Source: Escherichia coli (GTDB lineage: Bacteria > Pseudomonadota > Gammaproteobacteria > Enterobacterales > Enterobacteriaceae). From it: a stretch of 64,000 nucleotides of DNA. Of this stretch, positions 9,001 through 12,000 are shown piece after piece. Position numbers: made by a program. Numbering within the stretch: position 1 is the stretch's first letter; the number at the start of each line of letters is the position of its first letter. The stretch lies in the NCBI RefSeq assembly GCF_003019035.1, contig NZ_CP027447.1; one strand, 5' to 3'.

Positions 9001-12000
9001 TCTGCTGTGCGTTCTGATTGCCGGGTATCACTTTATGCGCCGATGTGGTTTTATCCCGCTCTTGCGCCGCCTGCGTCGTTTTCTGCGGCGTGCCGTAAAT
9101 GCCTTTCGGTTTTCGGTTAATGGTCAGCTTTGTCATGCCTTCCCCTGTAATTACTCTGTTCGCTGTTGTGAATTAAAACGGTATGTTATCCCCGTACAGG
9201 TCATCGTGCTGGCCTGTCTGTTGTTTTGCCCTGTTCAGTGCGTCAGTGGCCTGCCCCTGTTGGCCTTTTTTGCCGCCCGGTCGCGCCGTTCTCGCACTGA
9301 TTACGCTGTCTGCGATGACCTGCCAGCCCTGCCGCGTTTCGCCGTTCTGCCCTGTCCACTGGCTTACCTGCATGTTACCCGCCACGCTCACCAGTTCGCC
9401 TTTGTGGTGTCTGGCCAGTGCGTCGGCCTGTCTGCCAAACGCCAGGACGGATAACCACATCGTAGCCGTTCCGTCATCGGCCTGGCTGCACGGCAGGGGA
9501 ACCGCCATACTCGCCATCGCCATTTGTGTCCCTTTGCTGGTGGTTTTCAACTGCGGGTCAGCCACCAGCCGCCCGTAAGCTGCTATCTGTGCTGTCATGC
9601 TGTCTGCTCTCCGGTTTTAACGTTGATGGTTGTCACCTGTTCCGCTTCGGCAATCTCCCGTTCTGTCAGCGTGGCAAAGTTTGCCGCCGTCGTGGCCATG
9701 AATGCGCTTATCAGTTCGGGATGTGCTTTCGCGTATCCTTCCCCGGCGTGGCGGTCTATCGTTCTGATTGCCACCTTTAAGGCGTGCTCTGTCATGTCTA
9801 ATGCGCGATATTTTGGCGCTGTTTTATCTCTGGTTTTTCTGTTCATTCCCCACCACTCCCCACTTTTGTTCCCCACTTTTTAAAATTCCCCACTTGCTCC
9901 CCACCTCGTTTTTTTGTGATTCTAACGTGATGTTTTTCAATGTGTTTTTTACTCCCCACTTTTTTGGGTATATACAGGTGGGAAAGTGGGGAGTAACGTT
10001 GATTTTTTGTTAAATTCCCCACTCTCCCCACTTTTGTTCCCCACTTTTTACATCGGGTGAACATCATCGCCGTCAATAGCGATTACGTCGTCACTTTCCA
10101 GCTTGCGTAACCAGCGACTAAAGTGCTTCATCTCATACCCCAGCTTTTTCATATCATCACGCAATAACGGGATAGTGCATTTATCGCCGCGCTGTGTGCG
10201 TGAACGGATACAGCCCCATAGCGCGGCGTGATTCTCCGTCTTGTTCCCGGCTTCCTCGATGCGCTCCAGTTCAACTGGTGGGCGCGGCTTATCCACAACC
10301 ACCAGCGACGTGATTAACTCCTTGTCAGCGTCGGTAAAAAGCTCCACCACGCGTAAATCGTATGCGGCCTCTTTCAGTTCCTCTGCGTCCTTCATTTTGG
10401 TGCAGGAGATAACCAGGGCTTCACTGTCCGCACCTTCGCGGCGGATCCGGTATTCAGCGTCCAGAGATGCACGAAATGCACTGGAACCACGCGCCCCCTT
10501 TGTTTCATCCTTGCCGGAATGGTGAACCACCAGTACCGTGGCCCCTGTGCGTCGTTTCAGTTCGTCACATCCACGGATAAACGCCCCCATATCCCGCGCG
10601 TCATTTTCATCATTACCGCCAAAGCAACGCGCCAGCGTATCCAGAATAATCATGCGTACCGGTTTACCCGTTTCCCGTTCAACCTGACGGGAAGCGATGA
10701 CCATTTCATCAACATCAAGCGGGACCGCCGGAAAAATCGGGCGGTTTACCAGGTACAGATTTTCCACCCGTTCATCATTAACGATTTCCCATGCCTTGAT
10801 ACGGCGGGGGACACCAATGCCACCTTCACCGACGACATACATCACCGAACCATGCGCCACCCTGCGGCCTCCCCAGTGGCGACCCGTGGCAACATGACAC
10901 GCCCAGGAACACGCAAGGAATGACTTATAGGAACCGCTCGCGCCGTATGTGCTGCACAATGAATTAGCCGGAATCACGCCCTTAACGACATAATCAAGCT
11001 GTGTGTCGTACCCTGCAGATCCAATACTCATTGGTAGCGTGGTTTTTCGCTGGCTGTATTGCTCGTCAGTAAGTATTTCCCCGCGCTCTGCCTGTTCGCG
11101 GATCCGTTGCAGGTAGTCGTGCCAGTTCTCCAGCTTCTGGCTGTGCATTCCCTCAGGGTAATAATTCGCATCCCGTACACCTGCCGCCGCCAGCTTTTGC
11201 CCGATGGCATTAATATTTGACGGCTTGATGTGGCCTGCCTTGTACAGCCGGACACAATAGCGACCATCGTCGATAATTTTCAGGTCTGCCAGTTCGTCAA
11301 GCTGGCTGTCTCCCAGCCATACAGGAGGCACGTTGTCGCCAGCAAGTCGCCCGTCCTGTTCCTGCCACTGTTTCGCGTGCGCCCAGGCATCACTACCCGC
11401 AAAAATAATGACTTCGGTCATTTTGTCGTGCGGCTGTTTTTTTAAGTTCGGTGCCAGTTTCATTTTTTACCCCTGAATGCGTTAATCATGTTTTTCATTT
11501 TCTGAATGTTCGCCCGTGCCTTTGCGTTGCTGGTGGGCTGTTTGTGTGGTGTGGCCTGTTCCAGAGAAAAATCACGCCGGAACTGATAAACAGGCATCAC
11601 GCAGTCGTAGCTGTACCCATCACGGCGGTAAGTAACGCACCGTCCGGCAATACTTTTAATCGTTACCGTGCCGCCGTAGTTATCCCGGAAAATATCGCCG
11701 GAGCGGATTTCAGGCCGAGCGGGGCCGCTGGCAGTAAAGCCAGAATTTTTCTGTTTCATGGTTTTTATTCCTCTGCGCGGGTCTTGTCGTGTATTTCCAT
11801 AACCGCGTTTAATTCATCAATAACCGGGGTTAACAGAGTGCTGAAAGCAGAAAGTAAATACCCCCCGCTCGGTGTTATTTTCGGTTAATTCATCCAGTAC
11901 CGTTTTTAATTCAAGCGCCCTGATTAATGCATTCTCAGAATGAATAAGAACATCGAAAGGGATTTTATCCATGGTTTACATCCTCCGGTAATTTTCTTCT

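Follow-up and report, generated by a model that had tools for sequence, protein, structure and literature searches.

A 64,000-bp window from the Escherichia coli contig NZ_CP027447.1 (assembly GCF_003019035.1) was found to carry, at about positions 1578–16658, a satellite element of the capsid-forming phage-inducible chromosomal island (cf-PICI) type, in which an array of short repeats (iterons) directly follows the gene for a predicted helicase-initiator, rep. This array is very probably (about 0.85) the cognate replication origin of the satellite, as judged from sequence comparison. The repeats themselves, their conserved place and layout, their covariation with the C-terminal domain of Rep, and their transfer together with that domain and the helicase core as one cassette were all directly observed. 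The array had been called a putative satellite origin in an initial annotation of this DNA, and that reading is supported by the finding that the iterons covary with the C-terminal domain of Rep and are kept 3' of rep.

Layout and conservation of the iteron array

The iteron unit reads AAAAGTGGGGA(G/A) on the rep-sense strand, which is the minus strand of the window. Its core, counted as the motif YTCCCCAC, occurs ten times within 9846–10044 (199 bp), with nine copies on the plus strand (at 9846, 9856, 9869, 9886, 9897, 9952, 10015, 10024 and 10037) and a single inverted copy on the minus strand (9986–9993), such that the initial annotation of about nine iterons and one inverted copy over roughly 200 bp was right in both count and place. 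The motif is found 14 times in the whole window, compared with a mean of 3.7 (sd 1.85, maximum 8) in shuffled sequences, none of 100 shuffles reaching 14. The four remaining copies are scattered singles, and there is no second cluster of YTCCCCAC in the 64 kb. A degenerate half-copy, TTTCCCACC, is present on the minus strand at 9978–9986. Use of a repeat finder disclosed a 48-nt duplication with 85% identity (9835–9882 versus 10003–10050) and an inverted repeat with perfect 14-nt arms (9949–9962 and 9983–9996). The parts of the array are as follows.

9846..10047, minus strand: whole iteron array, putative origin, in the 202-bp gap from the rep stop codon to the start codon of the next gene
10015..10047, minus strand: rep-proximal triplet of direct iterons, cores at 10015–10022, 10024–10031 and 10037–10044
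9949..9996, no strand assigned: inverted iteron pair around a conserved core, copies at 9952–9959 and 9986–9993 with perfect 14-nt arms
9905..9951, no strand assigned: AT-rich spacer separating the distal cluster from the inverted pair, candidate unwinding region
9846..9904, minus strand: distal cluster of five direct iterons, cores at 9846, 9856, 9869, 9886 and 9897

The array begins 4 nt past the rep stop codon (10048–10050) and abuts the start codon of the next gene (9844–9846) at its other end. It had been described as overlapping the last codons of the ATPase gene, which did not hold, as the array is clear of the sense codons of rep and reaches no further than the stop codon, with the T-run of its last repeat. 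Inside the inverted pair is a core at 9968–9977 (CTGTATATAC on the rep-sense strand), and folding of the pair as single-stranded DNA predicted a 14-bp hairpin of -12.7 kcal/mol (z=-6.0). Five iteron copies lie on each side of a 47-bp stretch with a G+C fraction of about 0.33 (0.32–0.34 for the spacer and 0.55–0.64 in the flanking genes), a moderate AT-richness. The purine-rich iterons nearest the downstream gene, which encodes an 83-aa protein, form its likely ribosome-binding site (9847–9865, with GGGGAG 8–9 nt before the ATG); with the distal iterons serving this double role, Rep binding and downstream translation could interfere. No sigma-70 promoter or terminator consensus was detected by a consensus scan of 9400–10400, and a simple promoter or terminator reading is therefore unsupported. 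There was also no Rfam match at E<=0.1 anywhere in the satellite.

The module of rep and array matches 1853 of 5426 complete E. coli genomes (about one third). A pattern scan of one genome per species gave 80 homologous loci, which span many genera of the Enterobacterales as well as Oceanospirillaceae, Endozoicomonas, Kistimonas and Paraferrimonas. The 74 usable loci comprise 71 of these, the window and two E. coli relatives. At least four copies of some 7-mer were present in the 300 bp 3' of rep in 78% of the 74 loci but in only 1.9% of 3969 control windows from the same loci, so that the check proposed initially, in which iterons absent from homologues would have told against an origin, found them 3' of rep in most cases. 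The layout is also shared. Counted from the stop codon, direct repeats at about +4, +16 and +26 are followed by an inverted copy at about +55, the conserved sequence TGTATATAC, a direct copy at about +88, some 50 AT-rich bp, and three to five direct copies at +144 to +195. This arrangement is common to Escherichia, Salmonella, Klebsiella, Xenorhabdus, Hafnia, Kosakonia, Serratia, Yersinia and a metagenome-assembled genome (MAG) of the Oceanospirillaceae, with the triplet at +4, +16/17 and +26 in E. coli, Xenorhabdus, Hafnia, Kosakonia and the Oceanospirillaceae MAG. The one-directional array with a single inverted copy likewise holds across homologues, and in an alignment of 30 origins with five iteron types the TATA core was the most conserved stretch outside the iterons. 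A nucleotide search of a phage collection gave one weak match and a protein search only distant helicase cores, indicating that the module is a feature of satellites and not of known phages.

Two of the related loci differ in form. In Xenorhabdus beddingii (5030–5360 of locus L005), rep is followed by two tandem arrays, the first of the GTGAGG type, fitting the Asn of its Rep (see below), and the second of the GTGGGG type with its own inverted pair and TATATA core, incomplete in the stretch examined; this looks like a stacked origin of different specificity. The other, Klebsiella pneumoniae pKp_Goe_795-4 (GenBank accession number CP018459.1), is a closed circular sequence of 16,971 bp deposited as a plasmid, for which the record shows no replicon or relaxase typing. 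It has cf-PICI-like gene content (integrase, a Rep of the same family, capsid, adaptor and terminases) together with a gene annotated as tape measure protein, and its origin has the same layout with GTGCGGC iterons. Assembly may here have captured an excised, replicating form, a hint that fits episomal replication but proves nothing.

The Rep protein and its covariation with the iterons

Rep (471 aa) was assigned to the RepA helicase family and consists of an N-terminal domain (residues 1–131), a RecA-fold helicase core (about 150–390) and a C-terminal winged helix (about 405–471).

10048..11463, minus strand: rep, RepA-family helicase (Pfam AAA_25, E=3.3e-44; phrog_2850 over the full length)
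10051..10251, minus strand: region encoding the predicted C-terminal winged helix of Rep, residues 405–471

The AlphaFold model of the full-length protein (mean predicted local distance difference test score, pLDDT, 80.7) shows an N-terminal alpha/beta domain, the RecA-fold core and a C-terminal helix-helix-helix-hairpin domain. Its closest folds are structures of the hexameric helicase RepA of plasmid RSF1010 (1nlf/1g8y, template modelling score 0.68–0.71), a full-length search recovering the RecA core only, and RSF1010 RepA was also the sole match of the Rep family profile against the PDB (E=3.7e-9). Modelled alone, the C-terminal domain (pLDDT 87.9) has the topology helix-helix-helix-beta-hairpin, and its top fold matches are all winged-helix DNA binders: FNR, SmtB, DtxR, Fur, LexA and DnaD. 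The predicted recognition helix comprises residues 448–457, and His447 (codon 10123–10125) sits just before it. No Pfam family was found for the isolated N-terminal or C-terminal domain. Rep is unlike the RepA, pi and RepE initiators of pPS10, R6K and F, in having one C-terminal winged helix fused to a helicase core; those initiators have tandem winged-helix domains and no helicase motor, and recruit the host DnaB. For residues 1–131 (11071–11463) a repeated strand-helix fold was predicted, with invariant Glu17 and Asp65, and this domain may serve in partner binding or have a primase-like role.

Across the homologous loci, residue 447 of Rep was found to track the base that follows GTG in the iterons.

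Asn447: base A (GTGAGG), 24 of 24
His447: base G (GTGGGG), 11 of 14
Lys447: base G, 31 of 35
Ser447: base C (GTGCG), 5 of 5
Gly447: base C (GTGCG), 2 of 2

For six further Reps the iteron type was predicted from the protein sequence alone before the contigs were fetched, and all six fitted. Two pairs of proteins are informative. In the first, the Reps of L001 and P0030, the final 62 residues differ at one place, H447N, and the iterons are GTGGGG and GTGAGG, respectively. H447N paired with G-to-A in every iteron would constitute a natural specificity switch. The Reps P0061 and P0089 have the helicase core in common and differ in their C-terminal domains, and the iterons follow the C-terminal domain. 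This covariation is strong but indirect evidence that the winged-helix domain binds the repeats, and the predicted fold and the covariation agree in pointing to recognition of the array by its cognate Rep through that domain.

The satellite and exchange of its replication module

The satellite is about 15.1 kb long, its limits having been set by comparison with phage phi467. On the minus strand its genes are, in order, those for an integrase (15250–16509), an excisionase-like regulator, a Bro-N protein, a 502-aa protein with an Icd-like end, DUF4222 and Rep, then the array, followed by genes for the 83-aa protein, a single-stranded DNA-binding protein (SSB), a ProQ/FinO-like protein, an HK97-type capsid, protease, portal, adaptor, HNH, terS and terL. 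No tail or lysis genes were found between about 1578 and 16658. The published features of cf-PICIs are a size of 10–18 kb, an integrase, regulation and replication modules, their own capsid, protease, portal, adaptor, HNH, terS and terL genes, and no lysis genes or complete tail module. The element has all of these and is a capsid-forming PICI, which bears out the initial annotation of a PICI-type satellite. The genes next to rep are listed below.

11460..11759, minus strand: DUF4222 gene (Pfam E=1.5e-23), overlapping the start of rep
9595..9846, minus strand: gene for the 83-aa protein downstream of the array (phrog_1231), replication zone
9173..9598, minus strand: SSB gene, replication zone

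The 502-aa open reading frame (ORF; 12420–13928, TTG start) matches Icd-like or repressor families over its last 50 or so residues alone, and the region is split into several small genes in relatives, so that this ORF may be an artefact of mechanical ORF calling.

The element splits terL of a phi467-like prophage into halves at 834–1559 and 16479–17672. Window positions 700–1577 and 16645–17700 are contiguous in phi467, and joining the halves in silico restored an intact ORF of 585 aa. The satellite is hence also a helper-embedded PICI, interrupting a late prophage gene that would be restored by excision. Sites published for helper-embedded PICIs include A:Terminase_1:245/246, and the same four-zone gene order is described for them (PMC10111431). 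No exact attachment (att) repeats were detected by the repeat finder; imperfect ones are TTCGTGAGAATATTTCA and TTCGTGAAAAAATTCA. Among the complete E. coli genomes the terL junction is occupied in 35 and the site is empty in 901.

Sibling satellites with the same backbone were found to carry other initiators in the rep slot, each followed by its own iterons.

D5/DUF5906 primase-helicase, sibling satellites: GTCTACC repeats
D5/DUF5906 primase-helicase, sibling L004 among them: TGTTCACC repeats, the octamer being the 'ori type 1 repeat' of the P4 record
DUF927 protein, L085 and the Sakai Sp7 element (the counterpart of EcCIEDL933, the prototype cf-PICI): TAACCCGCA repeats

The DUF4222 gene sits upstream of the initiator gene in all three classes. 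Homology of the siblings to the window ends at 9794–9838, the edge of the array, and resumes near codon 131 of rep; these breaks define the travelling unit as the helicase core, C-terminal domain and iterons. Residues 1–131 of Rep share 42–75% identity with the N-terminal parts of the D5-type and DUF927-type initiators that sibling satellites carry, indicating one common domain fused to three unrelated helicase cores. Helicase core, DNA-binding domain and origin thereby move between satellites as a single cassette, with three unrelated classes of helicase taking part, which bears on incompatibility and cross-replication of co-resident satellites and on the design of small orthogonal replicons.

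A second iteron array, of a different type, occupies 1832–2010, in non-coding DNA that separates the satellite terL from the att end. Its elements are CGTATATATATAC, three inverted copies TGCGGGTTA, 77 AT-rich bp and three direct copies of TAACCCGCA, together with a TATATATATA tract, and is kept in siblings L085 and L086. No DUF927 core is encoded in the window, and the array is therefore an orphan here. Module exchange may have left it behind, or it could act as a second cis site as in P4 or be recognised by initiators supplied in trans.

Assignment of the origin and comparison with known systems

For binding, melting, ring assembly and its oligomeric state, priming, and initiation at the array, we infer the following course. 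Rep, encoded immediately upstream, would be a self-loading initiator-helicase whose C-terminal winged helix reads the AAAGTGGGG repeats, residue 447, at the start of the recognition helix, probably making contact with base four of GTG[G]GG. Multiple protomers might occupy the two direct-repeat clusters and the inverted pair and form rings of the RepA kind. Melting would follow, with the conserved TATATA core inside the inverted pair and the neighbouring AT-rich spacer as the two candidate places. Unwinding by the RecA-fold motor would expose single strands to be coated by the SSB that the satellite encodes, and priming and synthesis could be provided by host enzymes or by a partner of the N-terminal domain.

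Several points weigh against placing the origin at the array. No demonstration of binding or replication for this Rep family was found in the literature consulted, and the E-values of the winged-helix fold matches are weak (0.05–0.4). The dip in duplex stability at the spacer is moderate (z about 1.7) with weaker stretches elsewhere in the satellite, and the spacer is not claimed as a strong unwinding element. The iteron sets flanking it have the same orientation, the lone inverted copy being on the rep-proximal side, and the satellite holds the second array described above. Finally, the block of repeats that directly follows the alpha gene of P4 carries the annotation crr, a region required in cis, and the annotated origin is about 4.5 kb away, so that proximity to the 3' end of an initiator gene is not enough to identify a start site.

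The P4 arrangement favours the view that the array is a Rep-binding control region (a crr-like enhancer, a site of copy-number control or autoregulation, of titration or handcuffing, or an operator of the SSB operon) with initiation elsewhere. The inverted pair indeed resembles an operator, and bound Rep could affect expression of the next gene, whose ribosome-binding region and start codon are overlapped by the distal iterons. This view is nevertheless improbable, since the GTGGGG motif forms no second cluster in the element or the window and Rep would be left with no other start site, and the iteron sets around an AT-rich stretch match the layout of tested origins of PICIs and of Staphylococcus aureus pathogenicity islands (SaPIs). 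Control and origin functions are, moreover, not mutually exclusive in iteron replicons, as is generally known for iteron plasmids. Were the array at 1832–2010 the functional origin, the GTGGGG array would be a remnant or secondary site. That array has the classical PICI layout, with inverted and direct triplets about an AT-rich stretch and the TATATATATA tract, it is conserved in sibling elements, and its iteron follows the DUF927 initiator in cf-PICIs of the prototype type; the lack of a DUF927 core in the window, the covariation of the resident Rep's C-terminal domain with repeats of the GTGGGG type and not of the TAACCCGCA type, and the persistence of an intact GTGGGG array beside rep in hundreds of genomes make it very improbable. 

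There is scarcely any likelihood that the repeats are a packaging site (cos or pac, for the satellite small terminase) or a chance, low-complexity or coding feature. Repeated protein-binding elements are common in cos sites, but the array is 5.6 kb from terS and, upon module exchange, stays with rep and not with the packaging genes. Chance is excluded by the motif enrichment and by the counts in homologues and control windows. The array was also considered as coding sequence, one frame being open across it in GTGGGG-type loci; this was rejected, as the open frame is confined to those loci and half of 30 homologous arrays have stops in all six frames. The assignment as cognate origin thus remains the preferred one, and with it the likely origin and initiator are located for a replication module present in about one third of complete E. 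coli genomes.

A more far-reaching proposal, put forward tentatively and with the balance somewhat against it, is that Rep may represent an uncharacterised class of self-loading satellite initiators that combine a ring helicase like those of superfamily 4 (SF4; RSF1010 RepA type) with one winged helix. Specificity would be set largely by residue 447 (His/Lys for G, Asn for A, Ser/Gly for C), and the origin would follow a fixed grammar of triplet, inverted pair around TGTATATAC, AT-rich stretch and cluster. Exchange would involve the core, the C-terminal domain and the iterons as a block, joined to an N-terminal domain that SF3 and MCM-like initiators also have, and co-resident elements with DUF927 initiators might replicate the satellite in trans from its orphan TAACCCGCA origin.

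An array of iterons that follows a PICI rep gene, surrounds an AT-rich stretch and is read by a C-terminal winged helix belongs to an established class. Different here are the RecA-fold helicase of the RSF1010 RepA type, the mostly one-directional array with a single inverted pair around a conserved core, and the simple relationship of residue to base. PICI origins directly follow the initiator gene, and short iteron sets stand on both sides of an AT-rich stretch (PMC6092414, Fillol-Salom et al. 2018); the iteron sequences of Fig. 2a of that paper are not in its supplements. The pri-rep-ori region of EcCICFT073 is alike in both respects, and the backbone of DUF4222, initiator, gap, 83-aa gene and SSB is like that of Gram-negative PICIs. 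However, the EcCICFT073 initiator is a D5-type primase-helicase whereas the Rep studied here is a RepA/AAA_25 RecA-fold helicase, the iteron sequences differ, and the flanking sets in the window are co-oriented, with one inverted pair around the conserved TGTATATAC. Helper-embedded PICIs are similar in their integration into a late prophage gene, and the paper on them treats integration and not the origin, its replication zone containing Primase, SSB and DUF5906, with RepA-type helicases not named in the available portion of the text (PMC10111431).

SaPI Reps combine helicase and initiator in one chain, with a C-terminal winged helix reading penta- or hexanucleotide iterons (PMC9371898, Qiao et al. 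2022). Their motors are of the AAA+ type (SF3 or SF6) and have 3'-5' polarity, and SaPI origins have 6–12 iterons directly after rep around an AT-rich centre, the two sides running in opposite directions (PMC9371898). The Rep of the window is likewise a one-chain helicase-initiator with a predicted C-terminal winged helix and iterons directly after its gene. Its core lies outside the SF3/SF6 AAA+ class, being an SF4-like RecA fold (AAA_25, RSF1010 RepA), and by analogy it would work like a self-loading Rep without membership in those families, probably with 5'-3' polarity. The likeness to known PICI and SaPI origins, as anticipated initially, therefore extends to the place 3' of rep and the sets flanking an AT-rich stretch, but not to the opposed orientation of SaPI iterons.

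In P4, type 1 repeats (TGTTCACC) directly 3' of the alpha gene are bound by alpha, a similar place, but P4 needs two separate repeat regions, ori and crr, whereas the window has a single cluster of its own motif. The alpha protein unites a primase with an SF3 helicase. The IncQ plasmid RSF1010 provides, in RepA, the closest solved structure to the Rep core. Its replication set comprises the RepA helicase, the iteron-binding initiator RepC, the primase RepB' and oriV, in which direct iterons are combined with an AT-rich stretch and an inverted repeat. RSF1010 thus uses one protein, RepC, to bind the iterons and another, RepA, to unwind, whereas the Rep of the satellite has a predicted winged helix fused to its helicase core. 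The iterons of the satellite are 8–11 bp long compared with 20 bp in RSF1010.

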